The position numbers and the translations under genes were made by a program. Shown here piece by piece: positions 40,486 to 56,297 of a stretch of 64,000 nt of DNA. The stretch is taken from positions 32,001-96,000 of the IMG/VR virus record IMGVR_UViG_3300036768_001490. One strand, given 5' to 3'. Within the stretch, counting starts at the first letter, position 1; each line of letters starts with the position of its first letter. The notes under the pieces are model-generated. The model was not told where the DNA came from and made no database searches. It saw nothing but the letters and a program-made list of their open reading frames with translations. Source of the stretch: a virus.

Positions 40486-43400
40486 TTACCAGCCAAAGGT
40501 CTCGCGGAACTGGCGTCTCCAGTGCAGGGGATTGAGCGCCGGCAGCGTTCTGCCGCCCGTGCCTGGAATGACCGCATTGCCTGTCAAATAGTCATCCCAG
40601 CCGGCCGCGGGACGCGAAAGAACGTCAACGATAAATTCAGTAGCATTGACAGCTCGGCGGAGGCCCTTGGTGTCCTTGGTGCCCTTCGCGTTCTCTTCAG
40701 CTAGCGCGCCAGCTAGAGCGTCCCTGACCAAGGTGGCCTCTTCCAGCATCTTCCCTCCCGTGAGCGGGTTCAGCGCTTCCTTGCGCTCCTCGTGACTGAA
40801 CGGGTTGATCATCTTGTGCCCCATCGCCATGTAAGTGAGGGACTGGGTGGGCGAAAGTTTGGAACTTTCTATGACAAGCTGGGCAGGCGTCTTGGTCTTG
40901 GCAATTTCCACATCGCGGATGAATTTCTCTTCCTGTTGGCTCAAACTTTCTCCTCTGGCCTTCTTGGCCTTGAGCCTCTCTGCTTCGGGGATGTCCTTTT
41001 CATGCAGTTGCTTCATCACGATCTTCTCGGCCTCCGTGGCAATGCCTTCCGCCTGCGCTGACATCGTCGTGCCGGCCGTGTGGATGTCCGCGACCGTCTT
41101 GGTAATGTTCTTAATCAGGTTCATGCTGCCTTCTGGGTTGTTGCTGTCCCGCTCAACGCGCGTGATCCCCTTGAACAGCCGGTGGAGCGAGTCGGCGACG
41201 ACGTTGCCCAGGGGGCCGTAATCCTTCGCACGCTCGTCTTCACTCAGCTGCAGTGCCGGCGTGAACGCGAAGGGGTCCACCGCGTTTCCACTCGCCAGCT
41301 CGCCTCGCCGGAGCCTGTCAGCCTGGTGTTTCCGGATGAGATTGCCAACGGCCGCCTGCGCCTCGAAGTGCTTGCCGATGTTCGACTCGGACGTCAGCTT
41401 GCTCTTGGCGGCGCCGTCGTCTGCCTGATCTTCGGACAGTGCCCGGTACAGGTCTTTGAAAAGGTTGTAACCCTCCACGCCCAGCTGGGCCCCTCCTTCC
41501 AGCATGATACGGCCGGTGTTGACGTGGTTGGAGCGAATGCCAAGTGCCGTGAGCAAGTTCATGCCCGGCTGCTGCCGCCACTTGTACAAGTCGAACAGGT
41601 CGGCCGTTCCCTGGATGGCCTTCTGGTTCTCGCTGCGGAACTTTCCCTCGGACGAGAGCAGCCGGTCCCAGCCGCCCTCTTGCCAGTCCTCCAGAATGTT
41701 GCTTCCGGCTTCGCCCAGGCCAGCGATAATAGCCGCAGGATTGACGACATATTTGCCTAGCCAGCCGGCCACGTTGAGCATCTTCGTGCCGCCGGACGTC
41801 AGTCCTCCCGCCGCGTTGAGGAGCCGAGCCGTAGTTCTTTCGCCCAGCAGGCGTTTCGCCACGTTGCTGGACGCTAGCCAATTCAGGGCCGTGCCGGTGC
41901 CTTGCATTCCACTGCCGGAAATCGAGGACAGCGCCTGCACGCCGGAAAACGGCAAGGACGCCAGGCTGACATAATTGTGCCACTTGAGCTGATTGTCGTC
42001 TTTCTTGCCTGCTGCCTCTGCATTATTGCTATTGTTTACGGCGGCGTCGCTATTGTTTACGACAGCATCTTCATGGCCACGGCCCAGGTCGAAGGCCAAG
42101 TAGGCCGGCGGCACAGCATACTGGTGGGGCGAGTGGGACGATTGGGAATACGGGTGGGGCAAGTGGGGCGATTGGGAGAAATCGTAGCTGAAGGTCCGCG
42201 GGCCGGTGACGTAGTCACCGTAGTCAGGCTGCTGCTGGCTGTTCTCGCCGGGACGTCCCGTCCCAGGCAGGTATCCTGGCGGCACCGGTCTGCCCTGTCC
42301 CTGCTGGCCTGGTCCAAAGGGCTGGTACTGGTACTGGCCGCGCACGTAGGGGCTCCGGCTGGTCAGGACATGGATCGCGTTCGGGTCCAGCAGGGAGCCG
42401 AAGCGGATGGCAGAGCCGACCAGGCCGCCGAAGCCAGAGTTGGGATCGTTCGGGTTGCCGCCGCCGCGGACAAACATGGCGGCCTGACGCGGATCGTCGT
42501 GCTGCCACATCATGGGTCTGCCCCGCGTGTACTCCCCCTGGTGCGGCGCGTACTGGTAGGGCTGGTACATGGTGGCGGGAGTGCGCACGACGCCGCGGAA
42601 CGGGTCTGGATTCCGGACAGAGGTTGGGCGGGTGGCCCCGGCGGTATGGGAGTTCCCTGCTGGCTGTGCCGCCGGCTTCGCCCCGCCGGAAGGATTCGCT
42701 CCGCCAGAGGCCGCCACCGGCTTGCTGCTGTCCTTGTTGTCGTCGGCGGCGGACTTGCCGAAGAACTGCGCCTCCGCCTGCCGCAGCAGGGCGTCCGCTT
42801 CCTGCCGCTGCGCTTCCTGGTCCCAGGACGACTTGTACCAGCCGCGGAAGATGCGGGACAGCATGCTGCCGCCCTCGTCGCTGCCGGCAGCTGCCGGAGG
42901 AGGTAAGTCGAGCGCCAGGCCGTCCGTGGCTACTAGCCGCGGTGCCGTCTTTCGCCGCGCCCCTCCCCGGGCGCTTTCCTCCATGCCGTCGGGAACGGTC
43001 CCCGGCTCCGGCTGACGTACCGGTCCGACCAGGCCGAAGTCCGAGGCCCTGGCCAGACCCGGCACGAAGCTGGTGCCGGACTCGTCCCAGCCGCGCCCCC
43101 GGTGGACGGCCTCCAGCAGGCCACCCTTGATGCCGGAGCCGTACATGCGCGCCAGGACGTCCGGGTCGTGCTGGAGAGAGTACATGCCGCGGATCATCTC
43201 GCCCTGGAACGGCGGCGGCTCGTCATGGACGACTACCCGCCGGATGCCGAACTGCTGAAGTTCCCGGATGACGCTGGGACGGACCCGGGTGCCGATGGTG
43301 TAGTGCAGCACCGGCTTCTCCAGGTACTTGCCGACCGCGCGGCGCACGTCCAGCTCCTGGTGGCCGGCGCGGGGCTGGTAGTTGTATTCCAGCGTGGCGT

Positions 43401-45372
43401 AGGGCACCACGTCGTCCGGCAGGTTCCCGCCGAACTCGTCCGTCAGGCGGACGTGGTTGATAAGGCCGCGGGCCAGGATTTCCACGTTGCGGCGGTTGAC
43501 CTTCAGCCCGGCCGACCGCATGGCGTCCGTGTAAGCCTGGACAAAGTAGCGGCGCCCCTCGCCGATGCCCTTGTGCTGCACGATCAGGTGTGGCTGCGGG
43601 ATACCGTCACTGATGACGTCACCGGCCTCGACCGTGTCGCCAGGACGGACCCGCAGGTTGAAGCCGGCGCCGACGTAGTGCCGGGTGCCGTTGATCCAGA
43701 CAAACTTGCCTCCGGCCGGAGCGTCCTCGATGCGCTCCACCGTGCCATCCTCGGTCGCGTGCGCTGCTCCGCCGCGGAACACCTTGGGCACCTGGATCAG
43801 CTGGTTAATGTACTGGAAACCGCTCACGGCCTTCTCACGTCCGGCCACGCCACCGCTGTGCTTGGCCGAAAGCTGCGCCTGCGACAGCGGCTCCGACAGG
43901 GCCTGGGCGGCGGTGAGGCCAACCTGCTCGCCGCGGCCAGGCAGAACGCCGCGTTCACGCACACCAACGTCCCGTGCGTAAACACCACCATCAGGACTGC
44001 CGCCCACCACCGGACTTCGCACAAGAATGCGAGCATGGCCTCTCCGCCGGATGTCCTTGAGAATCTTTGGCGTCAGCACCGTGTTCTTCCGGTACGGCCC
44101 CACGTCCTGAGCCAGCAGGGCGCCCTCGTTGTCCGGGTCGTCCACGTCCACGGGAAGTCCGCGCGGCGTCGGGTCGTCCCGCGGGTCTTCCTCGTCCACT
44201 ACCACCAGGCGGTGCGAGACCTGGTTGAGCTGCTTGCTGTTGGACACGACCATGCCGTTGGCCAGCACGAACAGGTGGTCCGGGTGGTCCACTTCGATGT
44301 CATAGGTCGGCCGCCAGCCGACTTCTTCCCGCCGCACCAGGCGGCACAGCAGGACGTGCCTGTCCACCGGCCGCCGCGGCTCCTCTCCGTACCCGACCCC
44401 GGCCGGGACAAGGGCCGGCTGCCGCGGCCTCGCCGCCACCAGGCGGAGGCCGGCAGCTGCCACCTGACGCAGCGGCAGCAGGAGGTAGGGACGTCGTCCT
44501 CCCGGCGGCGCTGCCAGGACACGGTGGTCCTCTGTCGCCTCGATGGTGATGGCGGCCCTGCCGGCGCGGAAGACGTACCGCCAGACCCGGCGGAGACCGT
44601 GGACAAACAGGGCCCGGACCCGCGTGGGGAACGTCCGTCCCCGCCGGTCGGCACCGAGGACAAGGTCGCCGGGACGCAGCTGCTCGATGGGGACGGAAGT
44701 CCCTTCCGGCCGGCACACCTGCGTTCCTTCCGCCAGGCACAGGAAACCGGCGTCCTGCGTGGAAAACTTGGTCGCCATGACGCCCTTGCGCGCCCCGTAG
44801 GTGCCTGCCCAGTATTCGACTGGCCGGTAGCCCTCGCTGTAGGACGACAGGATCGGCAGAGGCAGCACGTCGTCGCGGTGGTCGGCGAAGAGCAGGCCGG
44901 TGCCGCGCAGCTCCGCCAGGTTCATGGCGTTGCCGCGCGAACCGGACAGCACCTGGAAGGCCAGTGGGTTTTCCTCCCGCAGCGATTCCTGGTAGACCTC
45001 GTCTGGAATCTTCTCGGCCGCGCGGCCCACGGTCAGGACCAGCAGGTCGTTCCGCTGCCGGTCGGTCAGCCGGTCGTCGTCAAGGATCTTCTTGACCTTG
45101 GACCACAGTTCCCGTTGCTTCCGACGGGCAATCTCGGACTTGGCCATGTGCCGCAGGCCGAAGGAGAAGCCGCCCGTCTCCGACGCGGCCTGGCGGCCGA
45201 TGTCCGCCAGGTGCTTGCTAACGTCGCGGTATCGCTCCGTATGCTTCCGCGCCAGCTGGCGCAGCAACTCCGCCATGCCCTTCTTGTCCAGGACACGCTG
45301 GTAGTCGCGCAGGTCTTCTGGCAACGTCTCGTTGACCAGGAGCTGCCCCATGCTGGTGCGTAGAACTGGCAT
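40486..45372 (-). CDS. rpoC: Phage RNA polymerase beta-prime C-terminal subunit (bridge helix, trigger loop) with a mini-intein and an ~850-aa non-RNAP C-terminal extension
   Basis: YSEGYRPVEYWAGTYGARKGVMATKFSTQDAGFL/SKQL matches the bridge helix (FREGL..EYF..THGARKGL.DTALKT..SGYLTRRL); AAQALSEPLSQAQLSAKHSGG matches the trigger loop (AAQSIGEPGTQLTMRTFH.GG). Confidence 0.85.
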   Translation of the reverse strand: MPVLRTSMGQLLVNETLPEDLRDYQRVLDKKGMAELLRQLARKHTERYRDVSKHLADIGRQAASETGGFSFGLRHMAKSEIARRKQRELWSKVKKILDDDRLTDRQRNDLLVLTVGRAAEKIPDEVYQESLREENPLAFQVLSGSRGNAMNLAELRGTGLLFADHRDDVLPLPILSSYSEGYRPVEYWAGTYGARKGVMATKFSTQDAGFLCLAEGTQVCRPEGTSVPIEQLRPGDLVLGADRRGRTFPTRVRALFVHGLRRVWRYVFRAGRAAITIEATEDHRVLAAPPGGRRPYLLLPLRQVAAAGLRLVAARPRQPALVPAGVGYGEEPRRPVDRHVLLCRLVRREEVGWRPTYDIEVDHPDHLFVLANGMVVSNSKQLNQVSHRLVVVDEEDPRDDPTPRGLPVDVDDPDNEGALLAQDVGPYRKNTVLTPKILKDIRRRGHARILVRSPVVGGSPDGGVYARDVGVRERGVLPGRGEQVGLTAAQALSEPLSQAQLSAKHSGGVAGREKAVSGFQYINQLIQVPKVFRGGAAHATEDGTVERIEDAPAGGKFVWINGTRHYVGAGFNLRVRPGDTVEAGDVISDGIPQPHLIVQHKGIGEGRRYFVQAYTDAMRSAGLKVNRRNVEILARGLINHVRLTDEFGGNLPDDVVPYATLEYNYQPRAGHQELDVRRAVGKYLEKPVLHYTIGTRVRPSVIRELQQFGIRRVVVHDEPPPFQGEMIRGMYSLQHDPDVLARMYGSGIKGGLLEAVHRGRGWDESGTSFVPGLARASDFGLVGPVRQPEPGTVPDGMEESARGGARRKTAPRLVATDGLALDLPPPAAAGSDEGGSMLSRIFRGWYKSSWDQEAQRQEADALLRQAEAQFFGKSAADDNKDSSKPVAASGGANPSGGAKPAAQPAGNSHTAGATRPTSVRNPDPFRGVVRTPATMYQPYQYAPHQGEYTRGRPMMWQHDDPRQAAMFVRGGGNPNDPNSGFGGLVGSAIRFGSLLDPNAIHVLTSRSPYVRGQYQYQPFGPGQQGQGRPVPPGYLPGTGRPGENSQQQPDYGDYVTGPRTFSYDFSQSPHLPHPYSQSSHSPHQYAVPPAYLAFDLGRGHEDAVVNNSDAAVNNSNNAEAAGKKDDNQLKWHNYVSLASLPFSGVQALSSISGSGMQGTGTALNWLASSNVAKRLLGERTTARLLNAAGGLTSGGTKMLNVAGWLGKYVVNPAAIIAGLGEAGSNILEDWQEGGWDRLLSSEGKFRSENQKAIQGTADLFDLYKWRQQPGMNLLTALGIRSNHVNTGRIMLEGGAQLGVEGYNLFKDLYRALSEDQADDGAAKSKLTSESNIGKHFEAQAAVGNLIRKHQADRLRRGELASGNAVDPFAFTPALQLSEDERAKDYGPLGNVVADSLHRLFKGITRVERDSNNPEGSMNLIKNITKTVADIHTAGTTMSAQAEGIATEAEKIVMKQLHEKDIPEAERLKAKKARGESLSQQEEKFIRDVEIAKTKTPAQLVIESSKLSPTQSLTYMAMGHKMINPFSHEERKEALNPLTGGKMLEEATLVRDALAGALAEENAKGTKDTKGLRRAVNATEFIVDVLSRPAAGWDDYLTGNAVIPGTGGRTLPALNPLHWRRQFRETFGW
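44239..44739 (-). mobile_element. Mini-intein (167 aa) in the RNAP bridge helix
   Basis: C1 LAEGTQV; block B ATEDHRV; block F/G TYDIEVDHPDHLFVLANGMVVSN followed by Ser; no endonuclease. Confidence 0.9.
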
Positions 45373-45374
45373 GG

Positions 45375-45794
45375 TCACTTCACCCACACCCTCTGGCCGT
45401 CAGCCAGGCGCAGGCAGCGCGACCGAGGGGAGAACAACCAGATGGTGATGCGCGGCTGGTTTGCCATGCATACCTCGCGGCAACGCCATACATGGTGCTC
45501 GTCCTGGCTGCTGGACACCAGCAACAGGACCACAGGCAGGCGTCGGGAGCGGGCGCCGTAATAGAGGGACTTACCCACTGCCTCGGCCCAGTCGGGTGCC
45601 CAGGCCACGGCGACGGCATGGTGAGGGGTCAGAAGGTCGATGCGCGTGCCGTCGTAGTTGCTTGCCCCGGCCTGGGCCGGCAGGCCGCTGGAGGTCAGGC
45701 TGGCTGCCAGGCATCCAGCCCAGTCCTCCTCTTCGGGAACGTTGCCGCCGGTCAGCAGGCGGCGCAGCCACGACCGGAAGTGCTGGAGCATCAC
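45375..45794 (-). CDS. Small PD-(D/E)XK-like protein, apparently degenerate
   Basis: DGTRIDLLTPHHAVAVAW..DWAEAVGKSLYY resembles the DGTRxD...AIExD...WAEAIGQ pattern but lacks the acidic ExD residues. Confidence 0.4.
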   Translation of the reverse strand: MMLQHFRSWLRRLLTGGNVPEEEDWAGCLAASLTSSGLPAQAGASNYDGTRIDLLTPHHAVAVAWAPDWAEAVGKSLYYGARSRRLPVVLLLVSSSQDEHHVWRCREVCMANQPRITIWLFSPRSRCLRLADGQRVWVK

Positions 45795-46678: not shown

Positions 46679-46960
46679 TCACTCGCGTGGACGGGGTCCA
46701 GCGATCAGCTGGGCTCCCGGGGGTGGGCCCGACAAACGGATGCGGTCCACCACGGTCGTCTGGGAGACGCCGAGGCGGCGCAGCAGGCGGTTAAAGTCCT
46801 CCATGCCCGCCATGCTGGCCGAGTAGGCGCCGTCCGGGCCGTAGTGAGCGGCGGCGAAGATCGGCGTGCCGTCGTCCGTCTCCAGGATGACCTGGCTGAC
46901 CGGAAGGACCAGTACCTGCCCGCGGCCAATGCCGTCGAGCGGGATGAGCTTGGCGATCAT
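46679..46960 (-). CDS. Small hypothetical protein
   Basis: 93 aa, ATGA overlap with the upstream gene, SD AAAGG. Confidence 0.65.
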   Translation of the reverse strand: MIAKLIPLDGIGRGQVLVLPVSQVILETDDGTPIFAAAHYGPDGAYSASMAGMEDFNRLLRRLGVSQTTVVDRIRLSGPPPGAQLIAGPRPRE

Positions 46961-47787
46961 GCAGCGCCGCCCTTTGCCGCCCGTGCCGCCTGGCGGAAAC
47001 GGGCAATGGCAGCCGCCCGGTCCTGCACGGCGCTGAAGCCACTTGTGTCAAAGGATGAGCCGTCAAAGGCGTGGCCGTTGCCGCGGTAGGCCCGGCGGTC
47101 ATGCGCCGGCTTCTCTGCCCCCGGCTTGCCCGCCGGCTGTATGCCCTCCAGGGGAGGAATGGGAGGGATCGCGCCCTCCTCGCCCCCTGCGCCGTCAGCA
47201 GACGGGTCGATGCCAGGCATGGGACCGCCCGTGGTCGAGGCGTGGGCCAGGTTCGTGAGGTCTTGCTGGGTGGCGACCATCTCCGAGGCAGGGATCTTGA
47301 TGCCGAGCTGGTCGGCGATGCGTGCCTGGATCTTCAGGATCGACAGCAGCACGGCGTTGGTGTCGATCTTGGGCTTGATGACGCCGCCCGTGTTGCCACC
47401 GTTGCCACCGTTGCCACCGTTGCCACCGTTGCCACCAGAACCGTTGCTCGACTGCATCTGCTGGATCTGCTGCTGGAGCTGACGTACCTGGTCCTGCAAG
47501 GCAGCCACGTCCGCGCTGTTGTCCGGCGACGGCGGTGGCGACGGCATGCCGCCCGCTGCCATCATGCTGGGGTCTGCCGGCATGCCGCCCGCTGCCATCA
47601 TGCTGGGGTCTGCCGGCATGCCGCCCGCTGCCATCATGCTAGGGTCTGCCGGCATGCCGCCCGCTGCCATCATGCTGGGGTCGCCGGCGGGCACGAAGGC
47701 ACGCTTGTGGAACCCGCCCAGGTTCCGCCGTGCCATCTTGAGGACTTCAAAATTGACCAGATGGTCGTCGCGCGTGGGGGCGCCCAT
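46957..47787 (-). CDS. Low-complexity protein with GMPADPSMMAAG and GGN repeats
   Basis: ATG 47787 with SD GGAG; HKRA-F after a 30-aa leader; 36-bp repeat x4 (about 47544..47690) and 9-bp repeat x5 (47392..47436). Confidence 0.65.
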   Translation of the reverse strand: MGAPTRDDHLVNFEVLKMARRNLGGFHKRAFVPAGDPSMMAAGGMPADPSMMAAGGMPADPSMMAAGGMPADPSMMAAGGMPSPPPSPDNSADVAALQDQVRQLQQQIQQMQSSNGSGGNGGNGGNGGNGGNTGGVIKPKIDTNAVLLSILKIQARIADQLGIKIPASEMVATQQDLTNLAHASTTGGPMPGIDPSADGAGGEEGAIPPIPPLEGIQPAGKPGAEKPAHDRRAYRGNGHAFDGSSFDTSGFSAVQDRAAAIARFRQAARAAKGGAA

Positions 47788-47879
47788 GTGAAAGCTCCAT
47801 TTTTCGTGGTCACGTACCGTGTGGCCCAGTCTACCGTACCTTGCCGGGCGCACACCAGTCCGCTTCGTCCGCCGCCCCC

Positions 47880-48380
47880 CTACGACGCCCGCCGCGGCCG
47901 CCGGAGACGGCGCCACAGCCGGCGGAGCGGCCGGACGTAGTAGTGGCCGACGAAGCCGCGGACCAGGGGCCAGCCGAGAGCCCGGCGGACGTCGTTTTCC
48001 CAGGCCGTGATCGGGCACTCGGCCCGGCTGCACACGGACCAGATGATGGCGAAGCAGGCAGGAAAGGCCAGATACCACGGGGCGTAGAACGGGGCGACGC
48101 AGAAGGCGGCCGCGTTCGCGCCCACCAGGGCCGAGTGGAACAGCCAGATCGCGGCCCAGCGGAATATGAGCCACGTCCGCTGCCACTCCCGCTCCCGGAC
48201 GGCCCCCACCTCCTCCGCTGCCCGGCGCAGCATGGCCAGCGACTGCCGGAGCGAGTCGTTCGTGCTGGTCTGGCCCACGGCCTCGTCCAGGGCGGTAAAG
48301 AGACAGCGCAGGTCCGCGTCCGAAAGGTACTCCCGTGCCAGGGCCAGGATGTTGCTGGCCTCCTCGGTCGTTGTTGGCAT
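47880..48380 (-). CDS. Membrane protein, DUF2784-like
   Basis: Two hydrophobic helices followed by CPITAWENDVRRALG...GFVGHYY, resembling the CPLT.lE..LR...GFI.HY motif. Confidence 0.45.
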   Translation of the reverse strand: MPTTTEEASNILALAREYLSDADLRCLFTALDEAVGQTSTNDSLRQSLAMLRRAAEEVGAVREREWQRTWLIFRWAAIWLFHSALVGANAAAFCVAPFYAPWYLAFPACFAIIWSVCSRAECPITAWENDVRRALGWPLVRGFVGHYYVRPLRRLWRRLRRPRRAS

Positions 48381-48381
48381 G

Positions 48382-50136
48382 TCAACCTCCCAGGATCTCG
48401 ACAGGGGTGTCCACTGTGATTTCACCGCGCCGATAGGCCCGGATGGCATCCTGGCGGGAACGGAACACGCGCGGGCGCTTCCTTGACACGGAGCGCCGCC
48501 GGGTGGACTCGTACAGCCCGCCCAGGTACTCCTGCCCCGGCATGTGTACCGGCGACTGGAAGTCCGCCGGCGAGAACAGGGACCGGCTGGGCAGCAGCCG
48601 GTCGTATGCCTCCTTCACCGCCTCCGGCGACGTCGGCACGTGGAACTGCATGGCGTCGCCGTCGAAGTCGGCGTTGAACCCCTTGGTCACGAGGGGGCTC
48701 AGGTGGATGGTGTTTCCGCTTACCAGCCGGGGGCGAAAGGCCAGGATGCCGAACTTGTGCAGCACGGGGGCCCGGTTGACGTACACGGGGCGCTCTTCCA
48801 TTTCCTCTTGCATGATGGAGCGGGCCAGCGGCGTCCGCTCCCGGACGTGGCGCAGGGCCTCGCGGATCGGCAGGCCGCGCCGCCGGAGCCGGCGGACGAT
48901 GAACTTGCTGTAGACGTCGAACGCCTGGTTCTCCGGGATGCCGATGGAGTCCATGTCCATGTCCGGGTCCGGCGTGATGACGGCCCGGCCGACGTTGTCC
49001 ACGGTGGTGGAGAGCAGCTTGCGCTGCATCGTGCCGAACTTGGGGGATTCTCCGAAGATGCTCTTCAGGATCCCACTGACGCCCTTCTCCTGGAGCTTGG
49101 GGTGCATGGGCTCGCCGAGACCCACGACGGCCTGGAAGGCGTGGTAGACGGCCAGGCGCTCGGGGCCCGCGTTCTTCTTGCCCACCTGCTTGACCATGTC
49201 GTTGTAGTTGCGGATGGCGTCCAGCAGCTCCTTGTACAGGTAGTTGGGGTCCGATATAAGCGGGATGCCCGTGTCTCCCAGCATGGACACGGGCCGGAAG
49301 GCAGGCGGCAGCACGGGCACCCGATGCAGCACCCAGTCGCGCGGGTGCAGGCCGAGCTTCTTGGCGCTGTCCAGGTACTGCCAGCGACGGATCGCCTCGT
49401 CCCGGTGGGAAGCGCGGCCGTACCGCCACTCCGCCCGGGCCTTGTCCAGCTCCTTGTCCAGGTCCAGCTGGTCCAGCGCCTTGGCCACGGCCTGGGGTCC
49501 GCTGCCGTACCCCGGCAGAGACTCGTCTCCGGCCAGCACCGCCTCGAACTTCTTCTGCGTCAGGCCCAGGATGCGGCGGATCGGCTCCTCCATGACCGGG
49601 TTCGGCAGCGGCTCGGGCAACTCGATGGCGGCCCAGCGCCGGCCGCCGTGTCCACCCGTCAGTTTGGGGTCAAACAGGCCGCCGGGGATGGGACTCATGT
49701 TGTCGTCGAAGCGCACCAGCTCCCCGGAACGGATGATGCGGTTGCCTGCCAGCTCCTTGACGTCCTGGTCCGTCAGGGCCATGACGTTTGCCCGGTGCCC
49801 GTCCGGGACGACATTGATGCCTGCCGCCTTCAGCTGGTGGACGAACTTATCGTACACGTAGGGCACCTTGGGCTTCACCGGCGTGAAGCCCAACATGAAC
49901 TGGAGCCAGAACTGTTCGTTCTTCTGTCCCCGGATGAGGCGGGCGTCCCGGAGCGTCTCCGTGGCCCCGTGGGACATCAGGGCGTTGACGTCCAGCATGG
50001 ACAGCCTCTTCGAGTTGCTGACGAGCACGCCGCAGACCGCGTACAGGTGGACGTCAGCGACCGTGATGTCGTAGACATCGGCCAGGCTGTCCCTGCCGGC
50101 AGACGGACAGTATGGCCGGACCTCCCTGACGCGCAT
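48382..50136 (-). CDS. rpoC: C-intein fused to RNAP beta C-terminus and beta-prime N-terminal half, including the catalytic NADFDGD
   Basis: NRAPVLHKFGILAF...GFNADFDGDAMQFHVP (motif at 48655..48675), VPVLPPAFRP and GRAVITPDP; N-terminal extein SKRLSMLDVNALMSHGATETLRD aligns with beta [23 protein letters not shown]. Confidence 0.9.
   Translation of the reverse strand: MRVREVRPYCPSAGRDSLADVYDITVADVHLYAVCGVLVSNSKRLSMLDVNALMSHGATETLRDARLIRGQKNEQFWLQFMLGFTPVKPKVPYVYDKFVHQLKAAGINVVPDGHRANVMALTDQDVKELAGNRIIRSGELVRFDDNMSPIPGGLFDPKLTGGHGGRRWAAIELPEPLPNPVMEEPIRRILGLTQKKFEAVLAGDESLPGYGSGPQAVAKALDQLDLDKELDKARAEWRYGRASHRDEAIRRWQYLDSAKKLGLHPRDWVLHRVPVLPPAFRPVSMLGDTGIPLISDPNYLYKELLDAIRNYNDMVKQVGKKNAGPERLAVYHAFQAVVGLGEPMHPKLQEKGVSGILKSIFGESPKFGTMQRKLLSTTVDNVGRAVITPDPDMDMDSIGIPENQAFDVYSKFIVRRLRRRGLPIREALRHVRERTPLARSIMQEEMEERPVYVNRAPVLHKFGILAFRPRLVSGNTIHLSPLVTKGFNADFDGDAMQFHVPTSPEAVKEAYDRLLPSRSLFSPADFQSPVHMPGQEYLGGLYESTRRRSVSRKRPRVFRSRQDAIRAYRRGEITVDTPVEILGG
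50014..50136 (-). mobile_element. Split intein, C-terminal half (41 aa)
   Basis: MRVREVRPY...VYDITVADVHLYAVCGVLVSN followed by Ser; own ATG with SD GGAGG at 7 nt. Confidence 0.85.
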
Positions 50137-50167
50137 GCTACGCCCTCCCTGGAGACCGCGCCGGACC

Positions 50168-53100
50168 CTAGCACTCCATCAGGTCGTCTCCCGCCGCCAG
50201 CTGGCACGCCAGCTTCCTGCTGCCATCTTGCAGCACGAACTCATGGTTGCGGGTGCATACCAGCGTGGCTCCGTCCGCCAGCTCGACCTCCACCAGCGTG
50301 GACGCGGGCACCCGGTAGTGGAACCAGTCCGTGACGGCGTACCAGCCTGCCTCCTGGCCCTCCAGGCCCCGCGCGCGGACGCGCAGAGGCAGACGTCCCT
50401 CCACCACCTGCCGGATCGTCCGCGGCCCCTGGTCCGTGTGCAACACGGTGTCGCCCAGGAAGCAGCCCATTTCCCCTCCCTTGGACGGGCTCTCGTCCAG
50501 GGAGTACGCGCCCCCGCCGCGGCCCTGGCCCTTGGAATTGCCGGACAGCATCGGCTTGCCGTTGCGACGGACATACAGCAGACCTGTCTCCATTTCCGCG
50601 CAGTAGACGATGCCGTTGTAGTCCTTGGTCCAGAAACGGCCCTCGCCCGGACCGGCCCAGGCATCGGTGCGCTCCGGCACCACGCGGCAGACCCAGGAGG
50701 GCAGGAAGTGGGAACTGGGCCCGGGCGGCCGCCGCTGCACGATGGCGCCAAGTCCCGCCCGGATGAACAGCTCCTGGAAATCGTCCGCCAGGCCCCGGGA
50801 CAGGGACACGTAGCCCAGGCGCCGCCCCGCCTCGTCCCTGCCGCAGCTAGCCAGCCAGGCGGCACAGGTCCGGCGCAGCACGTCCGGCGGCTGCTCCAGC
50901 AAGTGGCGTGGCAGGCGCTTGGAGCGGGCATGCCCGCCGTACCGCCGCAGGTGTTGCGCAAGAGGACGGTGCGCCAGGACGTAACCCTTACCGGGGACGT
51001 ACTCCCACGGCAGGGCCAGACGTTGCAGCAGCTCCTCCAGCGCCGCAGCCCGCGCCGGCCCGTCGCCCGGCTTTTGCCCACGGACGAAGAAGGTGACGTC
51101 CGCGCGCCGCGGCGTCACCCGGGCATGGCCCGCGCCGGCCCACCAGCCGACCAGCTCGGCGTAGTCCCCGCAGTCCATCTCCTGGCCGCACACGAGCAGT
51201 CTGGCAGCGCAGACCTGGCCATTCTCCACTGGCCAGCCAAACTGGGGCACGCGGAAGCGGCGGCCATGCACCTCCTGCGCCGGCAGCAGGGCGCACACCG
51301 GGTCGGGACACTGGCCCAGGTCCGCGTACAGGCGGTGGTTTCCCGTGACCAGGTAGTCGAGGTCGCGGCTCGTGAAGCCGTACAGGGTGCCACGGAAGGA
51401 AGCCCGGATGAGGCGCAGCGGCCGCTCGAACACCAGCCGGCCGCCACGCACCGTGGCCAGCTCGTCGTCGCAGCGCACCTGGGGCCAGGGCACCCAGCCA
51501 CGGGCAGTCAGGGCCTCCGTGGCGGCATCGAAGCACTCCGCCGTGTGGTGCAGCTTCATGAAGAAGCGGTTGCCGGTAGCGATCCCGCGGACCTTCATGT
51601 CCCTTTCCGGCCAGAAGATGTCCTCGGTGTCCTTCAGGCCGTGCCGCTCCAGCTGCCGCCGCACCCAGGCGGTCATGTCCTCCTCGCCCTCGAAATCAGT
51701 CACCTTGATGGGGCGTCCCAGCTTCCGGGCCAGCTTGCCCAGCATGGCCTCCGCGATCTGGGCCGGGTTGACACGGGTGATGACGCCGAGCGGGTTCAGC
51801 AGGACTTCCAAAGGCTCGCCGTCCTCGCCCCGCGGCATCAGGCTGTCTGGCACAATGGCGGCGACCACGCCCTTGTCCCCGTAGCGCCCGGACATCTTGT
51901 CGCCGACCTGCATTGGCTCGACGGACTTGACCACGACGACCGGCCCGCTCTTGCTCCAGACCACGTCGGTGACGACGCCCGGCTGGTGGTGCTTCCACAG
52001 CACGCTCTCGTCGTTGTACCCAGGCTGCTTCTTCCGGTGGACCTTGTTCTGTGCATGCTCCCGCTGCCGCGCCGCCAAGATGAGCGGGTCGCCGTACTGG
52101 ACGACCGTGCCCGGCTTGACCGTGCCGTCGTCGTTGATGGTGTCCAGCACCTTCCGCTCGAACTTCTGGGGAAAGAGGCCGATGAAATCGCGCTTGCCCA
52201 GCTTGTGTCGGTCGCTCACCTCCAGACTGTGCTGGTACATGTGCTCGGACGACATCTTCTTGGCCATGCCCTCGGAGATCACGACGGCGTCCTCGTAGTT
52301 GTACCCCAGGTAGGGCCAGTAGGCCACGCGGGCATTGACCCCCAGGGCCATCGCGCCGTTGTTGTCCGTGTAGTTGCTCCGGGCCAAAAGCTGGCCGCGT
52401 CGGAAGTTGTCGCCTGGTCGGACCAGGGGGATCTGGTGGATGAACGTCTTGCGGTTGAATGGATAGTTGTCGTACAGCTCGATCTCTTCCTTCCGGCCAT
52501 CCGCGTACTGGACCTTGATTACTCCGTCACGGACGTCGATGACCCGTCCGTCCGCACCAGCCTCCACTGCGCCAAGGTGCTTGCCGTACTCTTCCTCAAA
52601 AGATCTCTTCCCCTTGGACTCTGGTGTGCCGGATTGTACAAGCGGAGCCTCGGCGGCGATGAGAGGAAGGGCCTGCGTAATGTAGCGGCTGCCCATCGCC
52701 ACGCGCTGTCCCTTGACCATGCTTTTAAGCGGCACCAGGTTGCCCAGAGGGCTGAACGTGTCCTCGAAATGAGGGATGACAAAGTCGATGTCTTTCTTGC
52801 GCACATAGGACAGTTTGCCTCCCTTCATCACAGGCACGCGCTTGCTGTCCCAGCGGAGGACGTCCGGCGTGGCCACGGCCGCGTCGGCCAGGTCGCGCGG
52901 CCCCTTCCAGACCAGCTTTCCCCTCCGGTCGAGCAGCTGCACGTACAAGCTGCCGTCACTCCCCTTGCGCGCACCCCGGGCCACATGCAGGTCCACGCCT
53001 GCCCGGAAGCTGTTACCAGACCAGTGACCCGGAGTGCCGTCCCGGCGGACGTAGAGAAGTCCGCCCGGCACCGTGGCGCAGTAGACGGGGCCGTCGTAGT

Positions 53101-55258
53101 CCAGCCGGTAGTAGGACGCTGGCGATGCGCCCCATTCCTCGTCGCCAGCATAGAGGCGGACGCGGTGCCGGCGCCGCTGCCCGTCCGGCTCAGGACGCAG
53201 CACGCTGGGGATGCCCAGCGTGAAGGCCAGCAGGACCATCTGCTTGGCCAGGGCCAGGCTGCTAGACTGGAACTGGACGAACCGGCCGTGCCGGTCCTTC
53301 CTTCCACCGGCCAGCAGCAGGACCGCGTACAGGCGGCGGCGGGACTCCAGGCTGCCGGCCAGCAGACAATCCGGCAGCCTGCGGCCGTGTGGACCGTCCA
53401 GCTCCCGGCAGAGACCGGCCAGGCGCCTGTCCTCCAACACGAAGACCTGGCCGGCCGCGTCATACTCCCAGACAAGTCCCAGGCGCGTCAGCAGGGCGGT
53501 GAGCCGCGCGTGCTGGGAACGGTACGCTTGCGGACGGCAAGACAGGCGCAGCCTGTCCGGGTTGATGACGTCTTCCTCCTGGTCAGCCGTCCCGGCCGCG
53601 GCCGTGTACCAGCAGACCAGCTCCGCCCAATCCTCCGCCGACCCGGGCCGACCCGAGGTCCACTCCTCCCAGGCACCGTATAGATCATCGCCGCGGTAGC
53701 AGGGACCGCCGCCGAGATGGAGGCGGGGCCGGCCAAAGGCTGCCGCGGCCGTCTCTTCCTGGTAAGTCCCGTCCGCCTGGCCGCGCGGCCGCACCCACAG
53801 GCGATGGTCCGGCGTGACCAGATAGCTCAGCAGCCGCGTCCGCACACCCAGCAGCTTGCCACGGTAATGGCCACAGTGCAGCTGCGTGGGCCGGTGCCAC
53901 TCCACGGTGCCACCGACCAGGCAGGCCAGCTCGTCCTTCTGGGCCACTTCCGGCCACGCCTTCCAGCCGGAGCGAGTCATCACCTCGGTCCGGGCGTCGT
54001 AGCACTCCGGCGTGCGCAGCGGGTCGATGAAGCCCAGGTGCGACGGCTGCACGGAGCGGGCCTCGTCCGGAATGGAGTCGATGTTCGGGATGCCGCCCTC
54101 TCCCATGCGCGTGATCCGCGTCTGCTTGTCAAACACTTCCGCCGGGTTGATCTCCTCCAGCGCCTCTGCCAGGCCGCTGCCCAGCAAGACCTCCTCGATC
54201 TGAGGCGTCAGGGCACCGCTCGGCATCTTGTCCAGCGAGCCGGCCAGGGAGACCTTGCGGAACAGCTGCGCCAGGGTCCGGCCGTGGTCGCGGGCGATGC
54301 GCTCGGCGAACATGTCCTCGGGACCGAGGAAGACCTGGTAAGCCAGGTGGTCGCGGTCGTCCGGGTCGGTTTCCCGGCGGCTGACCTGGAGCAGCTTCTG
54401 CGTGGCCTTGAGGATGACCTCCTTGCTGAGCCGGTCATACGGCTGCCCCAGGGTGTGGCGGGTGACTTCCGGGTCCAGCTCCATCGCCTGGAACTTGGCG
54501 ACCAGCTTTTGCCGTTCGCTGCCCTCGTCCCCGTCCCGCTCGTTCTTCCGCAGCAGGCGGTCGGCCAGTTTTCGCATGGTCCCCCGGTCGGGATACTGGG
54601 CATTGGCGGCGTACAGATCGTTGCCCCAGTAGGCCCGCACCTCCCGGTCGGTGGCCCCCATAGCTTGCAGCAGCGGCAGTAGCGGCATCTCCGCCTGGCC
54701 CAGGCGGATCTTGAACAATCCCTTTTCTGGGTCCAGGAAGTAACGGTGCGAGACGCCCTTCCCTGGCAGCACGTTGACGTGGCTTTCCAGCTCCCCGTTG
54801 TCCTTGATGCGGGTGAAGATGCCCGGCCGCAGCCGTTGCTGGTGGCTGACCGTGTACTCGTTGCCCCGGTGGATGAACGTCCCCAGGCTGGACAGATAGG
54901 GCACGCGCGCGATGACCTGGGTGCGACGTTGTAGCTCCTTGCCAGTGGCCGAGTCCTCCAGCACCCAGGTGCCCTGCAAGCGCCGGGCCAGCGTGCCGCC
55001 CGTGAGAACGGCCTGCTTGCGCTGACGGCGAGAGAAGCGCTCCGGGTCGGCCCACTTCACGTCGGTCAGGCGCAGACGGTGCTTGCCGTCATCCAGCGGA
55101 GCAATGGACTGGGCGGCATGGAGCACGTTGTCGTAGAGGGAACGGCGCGTGGCATCGGTGTCGCCAAAGGCGCGCAATGCCGGCAGAGGTGACGGCGGAG
55201 CCGCGCCGGCGCCGGCGAGCACGGCGTCGGCCCTCGTTGGTGGCAGTAGCGACGACAC
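50168..55258 (-). CDS. rpoB: Phage RNA polymerase beta subunit with two cis-inteins and a C-terminal N-intein
   Basis: GFIDPLRTPE (cf. GRVCPIETPE), QRVAMGSRYITQAL (cf. RALMGANMQRQA), GDKMSGRYGDKGVV (cf. GDKMAGRHGNKGVI), FMKLHH (cf. MLKLNH). Likely GTG start at 55258 with SD AAGGAAGG. Confidence 0.9.
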   Translation of the reverse strand: MSSLLPPTRADAVLAGAGAAPPSPLPALRAFGDTDATRRSLYDNVLHAAQSIAPLDDGKHRLRLTDVKWADPERFSRRQRKQAVLTGGTLARRLQGTWVLEDSATGKELQRRTQVIARVPYLSSLGTFIHRGNEYTVSHQQRLRPGIFTRIKDNGELESHVNVLPGKGVSHRYFLDPEKGLFKIRLGQAEMPLLPLLQAMGATDREVRAYWGNDLYAANAQYPDRGTMRKLADRLLRKNERDGDEGSERQKLVAKFQAMELDPEVTRHTLGQPYDRLSKEVILKATQKLLQVSRRETDPDDRDHLAYQVFLGPEDMFAERIARDHGRTLAQLFRKVSLAGSLDKMPSGALTPQIEEVLLGSGLAEALEEINPAEVFDKQTRITRMGEGGIPNIDSIPDEARSVQPSHLGFIDPLRTPECYDARTEVMTRSGWKAWPEVAQKDELACLVGGTVEWHRPTQLHCGHYRGKLLGVRTRLLSYLVTPDHRLWVRPRGQADGTYQEETAAAAFGRPRLHLGGGPCYRGDDLYGAWEEWTSGRPGSAEDWAELVCWYTAAAGTADQEEDVINPDRLRLSCRPQAYRSQHARLTALLTRLGLVWEYDAAGQVFVLEDRRLAGLCRELDGPHGRRLPDCLLAGSLESRRRLYAVLLLAGGRKDRHGRFVQFQSSSLALAKQMVLLAFTLGIPSVLRPEPDGQRRRHRVRLYAGDEEWGASPASYYRLDYDGPVYCATVPGGLLYVRRDGTPGHWSGNSFRAGVDLHVARGARKGSDGSLYVQLLDRRGKLVWKGPRDLADAAVATPDVLRWDSKRVPVMKGGKLSYVRKKDIDFVIPHFEDTFSPLGNLVPLKSMVKGQRVAMGSRYITQALPLIAAEAPLVQSGTPESKGKRSFEEEYGKHLGAVEAGADGRVIDVRDGVIKVQYADGRKEEIELYDNYPFNRKTFIHQIPLVRPGDNFRRGQLLARSNYTDNNGAMALGVNARVAYWPYLGYNYEDAVVISEGMAKKMSSEHMYQHSLEVSDRHKLGKRDFIGLFPQKFERKVLDTINDDGTVKPGTVVQYGDPLILAARQREHAQNKVHRKKQPGYNDESVLWKHHQPGVVTDVVWSKSGPVVVVKSVEPMQVGDKMSGRYGDKGVVAAIVPDSLMPRGEDGEPLEVLLNPLGVITRVNPAQIAEAMLGKLARKLGRPIKVTDFEGEEDMTAWVRRQLERHGLKDTEDIFWPERDMKVRGIATGNRFFMKLHHTAECFDAATEALTARGWVPWPQVRCDDELATVRGGRLVFERPLRLIRASFRGTLYGFTSRDLDYLVTGNHRLYADLGQCPDPVCALLPAQEVHGRRFRVPQFGWPVENGQVCAARLLVCGQEMDCGDYAELVGWWAGAGHARVTPRRADVTFFVRGQKPGDGPARAAALEELLQRLALPWEYVPGKGYVLAHRPLAQHLRRYGGHARSKRLPRHLLEQPPDVLRRTCAAWLASCGRDEAGRRLGYVSLSRGLADDFQELFIRAGLGAIVQRRPPGPSSHFLPSWVCRVVPERTDAWAGPGEGRFWTKDYNGIVYCAEMETGLLYVRRNGKPMLSGNSKGQGRGGGAYSLDESPSKGGEMGCFLGDTVLHTDQGPRTIRQVVEGRLPLRVRARGLEGQEAGWYAVTDWFHYRVPASTLVEVELADGATLVCTRNHEFVLQDGSRKLACQLAAGDDLMEC
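50171..50464 (-). mobile_element. Split intein, N-terminal half (98 aa)
   Basis: C1 FLGDTVLHT; block B VCTRNHEF; ends GDDLMEC-stop with no block F/G. Confidence 0.85.
50537..51535 (-). mobile_element. Intein 2 in RNAP beta (333 aa) with degenerate LAGLIDADG domain
   Basis: C1 FDAATEALT; block B VTGNHRL; end VYCAEMETGLLYVRRNGKPMLSGN followed by Ser. Confidence 0.9.
53012..54004 (-). mobile_element. Intein 1 in RNAP beta (331 aa) with degenerate LAGLIDADG domain
   Basis: C1 YDARTEVMT; block B VTPDHRL; end VYCATVPGGLLYVRRDGTPGHWSGN followed by Ser. Confidence 0.9.
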
Positions 55259-55298
55259 GGCTTGCCCCTTCCTTGCCAAGTCACCTTCCCGTCCGCCG

Positions 55299-56297
55299 CT
55301 ACCGTGTCCGGCCGGACGGAGCGCGGCCATGTCCCCCTTCTGTCCCGGCAGGCACTGGCGGCACCATGACCGGCTCGGGAATGGCGTAGATCGCGTCCGG
55401 CTGCTGCTCGAACAGGCGCCGCTGCTGGCGACGCAAGGCGTTCTCCAGGAGCTTCCGCCGCGAACGCTTCTCTATCCGGTCGTACACGATGGCCCCCGTC
55501 AGCAAGGCGCTGAGGCCGGCATAGGCCCCATAAATGCCGGGAAGGCGCTCCAGGAAGCCGGGAATGCGATCCATGAGGCCGCCGATGTCCAGTGCCTCCT
55601 TTTCCAGGGAAGTGCCCAGCAGCTGCTGCATCCTGCCCCACAGTGCGTCGAGCGCCTTGCCGACCTTGACCATGTCCGGCTCGTCCTTCTCCTGGCCACG
55701 GTCGGCGGCCTTCTTGGGAGAAACGCCAGGCAGCGACTCCAGGGGCTCGTCGTACTGCGCGAGAATGGCCTGGCGGAACTCACGCCGCGCCTTGCTCAGC
55801 TCCTCCTCGTTTTCCCGCCGCCGCTGCTCCCGGAGCAGGTTCGTCAGGCCACCGTAGCCCAGGCCGAAGCCGCCGAGCGCGGCGGCGAACATGGCGGGGT
55901 AGTACCAGGGGAAGCCACCCTTGGAACGGGGCGGCGACACCTCCACCTGCACCTTCTCCACCTGCCCCTCCTTCACCTGCCCCTGCGGGGACTCCTCCAC
56001 CGGGTAGGGCAGCGGCAGCAGGGCAGGCCCCCAGCGCCGACGCTTGCGCTGCTTCGAGCGCATCATGTTGTACATGCCCACCGCGCTGGCGCCGGCGGCG
56101 CCGATGCCCAACGAGGCAAGGCCCAGTTTGCGGATGTCCTGCAATGCCTCGTCCTGGAGCTTGGACAGCTTCAGCCGCTTCACCGCGTTGACGAAGTTCT
56201 GCACGTCGTCCGGCGTGACATTCATCCCTTGCTTACTGGCGATTTCTTTCACCTGTGACGGGGAGAGAAAATTCGCGTTGCTGCGGAGGCCAAACAT
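55299..56297 (-). CDS. Glycine-rich multi-helix protein, putative internal virion/membrane protein
   Basis: 332 aa, three Gly/Ala-rich hydrophobic helices each followed by basic residues; KKA and EKEA sites. Confidence 0.6.
   Translation of the reverse strand: MFGLRSNANFLSPSQVKEIASKQGMNVTPDDVQNFVNAVKRLKLSKLQDEALQDIRKLGLASLGIGAAGASAVGMYNMMRSKQRKRRRWGPALLPLPYPVEESPQGQVKEGQVEKVQVEVSPPRSKGGFPWYYPAMFAAALGGFGLGYGGLTNLLREQRRRENEEELSKARREFRQAILAQYDEPLESLPGVSPKKAADRGQEKDEPDMVKVGKALDALWGRMQQLLGTSLEKEALDIGGLMDRIPGFLERLPGIYGAYAGLSALLTGAIVYDRIEKRSRRKLLENALRRQQRRLFEQQPDAIYAIPEPVMVPPVPAGTEGGHGRAPSGRTR

Follow-up and report, generated by a model that had tools for sequence, protein, structure and literature searches.

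On the minus strand of a 64,000-nucleotide (nt) stretch of viral DNA (the window: bases 32001-96000 of the 182,719-bp IMG/VR virus record IMGVR_UViG_3300036768_001490), a gene for a beta-like RNA polymerase ends in the N-terminal half of an intein, and the gene that follows it opens with the C-terminal half. The two halves most probably form a genuine, naturally split class-1 intein, with Cys1, a C-terminal Asn and Ser+1, divided at the canonical split position. The record has an estimated completeness of 84% and a G+C content of ~65%, and its source is an uncultured phage of roughly 200 kb with a multisubunit-type RNA polymerase.

The upstream open reading frame (ORF A) ends in ...SPSKGGEMG/CFLGDTV...VCTRNHEF...AAGDDLMEC, where the slash marks the splice junction here and below, and is closed by a TAG. 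ORF B is in the +1 frame relative to ORF A, and has an ATG 7 nt from the GGAGG core of its Shine-Dalgarno site. Its opening of 41 amino acids (aa) reads MRVREVRPY...DVYDITVADVHLYAVCGVLVSN, followed by SKRLSMLDVNALMSHGA; the C-intein letters are MRVREVRPY...VYDITVADVHLY...GVLVSN, and Ser-Lys-Arg starts the C-extein. All sequence claims made for the split intein in the original prediction, i.e., a 98-aa N-intein, a TAG, 31 nt and a 41-aa C-intein, are correct on the minus strand. The proposed acidic end of the N-intein and basic start of the C-intein fit loosely with respect to local charge (GDDLME and MRVREVR, respectively); overall, the net charge is -4 for the N-intein (IntN) and -1 for the C-intein (IntC).

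A profile of the N-half, when compared with solved chains, matches the Mtu RecA mini-intein with an expectation value (E) of 7e-5 and Npu DnaE IntN with E 4e-4, and nearly all of the listed matches are inteins or intein-like domains. From a search of 1.84 billion representative proteins, a pattern with the first intein residue left free collected 17 related split N-halves, each from a different 50%-identity cluster, and all 17 keep Cys1-Phe2 and T-x-x-H. In a six-row alignment of N-halves (the window and five relatives), the T, N and H of block B (T-x-N-H) are invariant, and as for the C-half, Asp23 and His30 of block F, Asn41 and Ser+1 are the same in all six sequences. The copies of the split intein are only 37–63% identical to one another, yet these key residues do not vary. 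The retention of the split state through considerable divergence argues for function, and the same break in 10 related loci, taken together with the intein homology of the N-half, is far beyond chance.

Judged by alignment, the insertion site is a strongly conserved segment of beta. No insertion is present between the KLHH and NALLSHGA motifs in 71 of the 75 scorable related viral loci, and intein-free loci that were translated directly have one uninterrupted open frame of ~1,450–1,500 codons. The joined exteins of the window, ...SPSKGGEMG-SKRLSMLDV..., align gap-free to ...APAKGGESG-SKRISMLDV... of intein-free loci, and the intein-free homologue (akgges..gskrismldvnall) aligns to bacterial beta across the junction and on to the beta C-terminus, which bears out the earlier proposal that joining the exteins restores a conserved beta motif. 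Pfam matches are found on both sides of the break, with Rpb2_6 in ORF A (E 4e-49) and Rpb1_2 (Rpb1 domain 2) in ORF B (E 7.7e-28). The predicted spliced chain has 1,465–1,501 aa, depending on the start codon, and holds both catalytic barrels, in agreement with the single product of ~1480 aa originally expected; the contiguous gene of intein-free relatives encodes ~1,470–1,500 aa. The assignment of the intein to a fused beta + beta-prime-N chain is likewise supported.

Two contiguous proteins, P0036 and P0061, have the same content as the predicted spliced chain, and so does the 1,525-aa gp206 of Salmonella phage Arash. Arash belongs, with Vibrio phages D181, D148 and D69, to the closest cultured relatives, which are ~180-kb phages with ~32–33% identity; Arash itself, at ~32%, is a distant relative. 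Its gp206 gene (L087, OQ632216.1 130093-134670) is an uninterrupted fusion of beta and beta-prime-N that is annotated as ‘beta subunit’ only. Among the proteins detected in Arash virions, the homologous one ranks first in abundance by spectral count (PMC10585845), and this suggests, by analogy, that the polymerase is packaged in the virion.

An apparent break of this kind could arise from an assembly or sequencing frameshift, or from a very recent mutation, in which case the true gene would encode a contiguous mini-intein of ~150 aa, and the TAG and the +1 offset would be artefactual. The arithmetic of the original caveat is right, as the two frames would become one, with a 12-aa linker, if a single base changed in the 8 nt that precede the TAG, and contiguous mini-inteins with similar linker lengths exist at the site in other phages (P0036, P0103). 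However, three assemblies (the window record, a 21-kb Logan contig of SRR11727984, and a 114.6-kb contig of JGI 3300035183) agree in every letter between the end of the N-intein and the ATG of ORF B, TAG and spacer included, and the site lacks any long homopolymer. The comparison with related genomes that the original prediction had proposed shows the same stop and start positions in relatives. In three related IMG/VR phages (L002, L003 and L004), in which ORF B is 63–71% identical and the same intein occupies the same site, the N-half gene ends at one aligned residue (GDDLMEV, GDDLLEG and GDELQGA, each followed directly by the stop), and the C-half gene restarts at one aligned residue with its own purine-rich ribosome site, after 290–1,900 nt of other coding DNA. 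The stop in the window is at the same aligned residue as in these three loci and in L085 and L086, and the start is likewise at the same aligned residue, with a purine-rich ribosome site 5' of it as in the relatives. Seven further contexts have the same order of beta + IntN, one or two small ORFs, and IntC + beta-prime-N. In the 10 related loci, the intein is thus broken and restarted at the same aligned residues with other DNA between, and the closest relatives (63–73% extein identity) are all split. Because of the three identical assemblies and the conserved stop and start positions, an assembly frameshift is very unlikely, and an artefact can be regarded as excluded for practical purposes.

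Even less credible is a contiguous, cis-splicing precursor made by programmed +1 frameshifting or stop-codon recoding through ...DDLME-x-ARVRRGLQGGRSMRVREV. The +1 frame offset, the short gap, and a strong Shine-Dalgarno-like GGGAGGG just downstream of the TAG are features that would suit such an event, but no slippery motif precedes the TAG, and if the TAG is read as sense, a second TAG and then a TGA follow in the same frame, and the frame of the C-intein is never reached. TAG is moreover a common stop that ends 80 of the 198 long open frames in the genome. Both TAG recoding and +1 frameshifting were rejected on these grounds. In the relatives, 170–1,900 nt and another gene lie between the halves, which means that the family works without frameshifting or recoding.

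Several observations weigh against the reading of the locus as a genuine, naturally split intein. No solved chain matches the C-half at E 0.01 or lower; the strongest match is to a mini-intein chain named replicative DNA helicase, at its C-terminal end (E 0.035), and Npu IntC has E 0.37. The match of Pfam Intein_splicing to the N-half is below threshold (E 0.018; 15.3 bits relative to a cut-off of 35.8). In all copies of the family, the terminal Asn is preceded by Ser (V-S-N) instead of the usual His. The three assemblies may stem from related samples or from the same reads, and are not fully independent. As for co-transcription of the halves, the case for it is the lack of promoter-like or terminator-like sites between ORF A and ORF B, where none was found. 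A penultimate His is common among inteins but not universal, and some active inteins do without it; its absence is for that reason not taken as disqualifying.

The missing penultimate His would also agree with halves that associate but no longer splice, and that serve as a non-covalent clamp or leave a polymerase of two separate chains as in phiKZ-type enzymes. Multisubunit phage polymerases do tolerate split beta and beta-prime chains (PMC7824862). We nevertheless consider a loss of splicing improbable, since all nucleophiles and the block B and block F residues are invariant over many diverged copies, and a mere clamp would not require them. In addition, 139 aa would remain inside one of the most conserved segments of beta, at a point where intein-free relatives have an uninterrupted chain.

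For the split intein preferred here, a standard class-1 route can be expected. Both halves would be expressed from adjacent genes on one transcript, with ORF B translated from its own Shine-Dalgarno site, and the 98-aa N-half and 41-aa C-half would associate post-translationally into a HINT fold. Formation of the Cys1 thioester, attack by Ser+1 and cyclisation of Asn41 would then join the exteins within the conserved segment that matches bacterial beta. ORF A carries two contiguous inteins (Table 1), of which the second ends 24 aa before the split intein, so that one chain requires three splicing events. With cis-splicing of the two upstream inteins, the product would be a chain of ~1,465–1,500 aa with both barrels, as in the intein-free relatives.

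A complex model of IntN and IntC, each with five additional residues (IntN+5 and IntC+5), has a score of 0.81, as compared with 0.01 for the best control, and the runs have at least 94% of contacts in common, with a partner pLDDT (predicted local distance difference test) of at least 79. In calibration, the mark was reached by 58/80 solved complexes and 2/110 mismatched pairs. Because split-intein complexes have already been solved, the pass may reflect likeness to split inteins, and is not independent proof of binding.

The halves are separated by one or two small ORFs of 56–637 aa in 10/10 other split loci, and the window is the only one of the 11 split loci with nothing between them. The statement in the original prediction that nothing intervenes is thus valid for the window genome, but not for its relatives. 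The N-terminus of the intervening ORF is a helix with the pattern [FL].[FLV]LA..A..LR.K.A, ending in a K-x-A motif, the middle is Pro/Ala-rich, and the C-terminal end is R..RYGG, whose Gly codons provide the C-half gene with its ribosome site. ORFs of this family were seen only between the halves of the split intein. No match to Pfam or PHROG and no nuclease motif was found in the intervening ORFs of the relatives. A homologue was found neither in the window genome by tblastn, hidden Markov model (HMM) or motif, nor, by HMM, in the flanks of ~70 intein-free loci. The 31-nt spacer of the window resembles the 3' end of the intervening ORF only around the ribosome site. Based on the phylogeny, the arrangement in the window is most simply explained by a loss of the intervening ORF.

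The exhaustive profile search over 1.84 billion representative proteins yielded 980 matches at E <=0.001. Among the best 150 of these, 25 carry an intein at the exact polymerase site; 18 of the 25 stop 95–117 aa after Cys1, and seven are contiguous. In IMG/VR, the N-intein profile retrieved no loci beyond the three already known. The contiguous alleles at the site are mini-inteins of 148–163 aa and full inteins of 368–388 aa, and both full inteins that were scanned against Pfam contain a LAGLIDADG_2 domain. The ...LVSN/SK end is also present in eight contiguous alleles, and the split point corresponds exactly to the position of the endonuclease domain or the mini-intein linker in the contiguous alleles. 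In a tree of the C-exteins, one clade with a support of 100/100 unites six split loci with two that are intein-free, and twelve other loci are intein-free. The element would be the remnant of a mobile LAGLIDADG intein, inherited vertically, which has lost its endonuclease and is broken at the endonuclease insertion loop, and the window genome would additionally have lost the small ORF seen between the halves in relatives. Four metagenomic proteins that do not represent the polymerase site (P0075, P0099, P0102 and P0129) end in a homologous N-intein and stop at ...DDEL.E, with what resembles a DNA polymerase motif at the end of P0075. On the basis of these sequences, other genes may harbour the same split-intein lineage too.

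The nucleophile pair Cys1/Ser+1 is also found in gp41-1, NrdJ-1 and IMPDH-1, and the intein halves of fractured genes are of similar size, with about 88–105 aa and 37–40 aa. The arrangement in the window is closest to that of the fractured genes of environmental phages described by Dassa et al. in 2009 (gp41-1, gp41-8, NrdJ-1, IMPDH-1 and NrdA-2; PMC2677866): the host is a phage, the halves are adjacent and on the same strand, and the intein is divided at the endonuclease insertion loop. The fractured genes span eight enzyme types in DNA synthesis, repair and packaging, and a free-standing endonuclease, GIY-YIG or Vsr-like, separates their halves (PMC2677866). The present intein differs from these with respect to the host, which is an RNA polymerase and not an enzyme of DNA metabolism or packaging, and with respect to the passenger, which in the relatives of the window is a small Pro/Ala-rich non-nuclease ORF instead of an endonuclease. 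In the window itself, the 31 nt between the halves leave no free-standing homing endonuclease gene. The original prediction regarded adjacent halves without an endonuclease as setting the element apart from known cases, but the gp41-7 locus, which likewise has no intervening gene, is a precedent (PMC2677866). None of the inteins from the 2009 study is among the matches of the split halves to solved structures, and there is no close sequence similarity.

The cyanobacterial split inteins of DnaE (Npu and Ssp; PDB codes 4lx3, 4qfq and 1zd7) have in common with the present one the canonical split position, the predicted class-1 mechanism, and the sizes of the halves (~100 aa and ~36–41 aa). Unlike the DnaE inteins, which have a Cys as +1 nucleophile and are encoded at distant loci of a cellular genome, the intein in the window has a Ser in this position, its halves are 31 nt apart in a phage, and the host protein is different. 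Contiguous inteins such as those in the metagenomic proteins P0036, P0103, P0061 and P0134 have the same insertion point (GG..G/C ... LVSN/SK) and homologous N- and C-terminal splicing regions, but are single-chain, whereas the intein in the window is split. No published description of contiguous inteins at this polymerase site was found in the literature. Literature searches likewise returned no natural split intein in an RNA polymerase, in agreement with the original prediction; the matches were limited to phage MIJ3, with a split intein in PolB, and to engineered systems based on T7 polymerase. Taken on its sequence, the element belongs to a sizeable undescribed family; it is a split intein of canonical type, with a mechanism that appears conventional, and its host gene is new.

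Table 1. Features of the split polymerase locus (window positions) and ORFs between the intein halves in related loci (positions in the locus named).
Feature	Position	Strand	Remarks
ORF A, beta-like RNA polymerase	50168..55330	minus	ends in N-intein, TAG stop; full open frame 1,720 aa, stored protein P0003 1,684 aa
N-extein segment 1, beta-like part	54005..55330	minus	start uncertain: ATG 55330 or GTG 36 codons later
Contiguous intein 1	53012..54004	minus	331 aa, inserted after DPLRTPE
N-extein segment 2, beta-like part	51536..53011	minus	catalytic barrel, Rpb2 domain 6
Contiguous intein 2	50537..51535	minus	333 aa, inserted after KLHHTAE
Extein segment SKGQGRGGGAYSLDESPSKGGEMG	50465..50536	minus	24 aa, separates contiguous intein 2 from N-intein
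N-intein (IntN)	50171..50464	minus	98 aa; Cys1-Phe2 block A, TRNH block B, end GDDLMEC
TAG stop of N-half gene	50168..50170	minus	same aligned position as stops in L002, L003, L004, L085, L086
Spacer	50137..50167	minus	31 nt; GGGAGGG Shine-Dalgarno site 50143-50149
ORF B, C-intein + beta C-terminal end + beta-prime N-half	48382..50136	minus	own ATG at 50136
C-intein (IntC)	50014..50136	minus	41 aa including start Met; block F VYDITV...H, block G LVSN; Ser+1 next
C-extein	48382..50013	minus	543 aa + stop; beta C-terminal region, then beta-prime N-half with NADFDGD
Intervening ORF, L002	4091-6001
Intervening ORF, L003	5717-6001
Intervening ORF, L004	5600-6001
Intervening ORF, L085	9350-9733
Intervening ORF, L086	6850-7368
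Intervening ORF, L088	7840-8133
Intervening ORFs, L089	7921-8523 and 8538-8831		two copies
Intervening ORF, L090	8238-8567

Contiguous inteins 1 and 2 are 34% identical to each other, both end in G-N/S, and neither has an endonuclease domain detectable with Pfam. A mini-intein of 167 aa (CLAEGTQ...MVVSN/SKQ; window 44239-44739, minus strand) is present in the gene for the C-terminal half of beta-prime (40486..45387), which also encodes a non-polymerase C-terminal extension of ~850 aa. Kinship of the split halves with contiguous inteins 1 and 2 or with this mini-intein was rejected, since no significant similarity was found. A low-complexity protein is encoded between the polymerase genes (46957..48186, minus strand), where a 36-nt tandem repeat at ~47542-47688 encodes DPSMMAAGGMPA about four times. 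In a ribonucleotide reductase-like ORF (window 59415-62228, minus strand), an apparent further intein (CLRRDTRFWTRDG ... IVTGN/C) is noted from the translation only.

The suggestion in the original prediction that splicing gates activation of the enzyme finds no support in the data. A broader proposal would be that the split is a working part of the maturation of a virion polymerase, in which trans-splicing, together with the two cis-splicing events, sets the timing or stoichiometry of the packaged enzyme, and the small ORF, which in relatives accompanies only the split intein, encodes a new intein-associated factor, e.g., a virion-targeted protein or a helper in splicing or maintenance. We regard this as a doubtful, speculative extension; if it were true, the window genome would show how the system behaves without the small ORF.

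The intein in the window would extend naturally split inteins to a transcription enzyme, and in an entire clade of uncultured phages of ~200 kb, a working polymerase core would require protein trans-splicing. Use of such inteins as protein-ligation tools would be plausible, and the dozens of diverged Cys1/Ser+1 pairs are candidate orthogonal tools of this kind. The full, mini, split-with-passenger-gene and bare split forms at one site together make up a natural series for how inteins become split.

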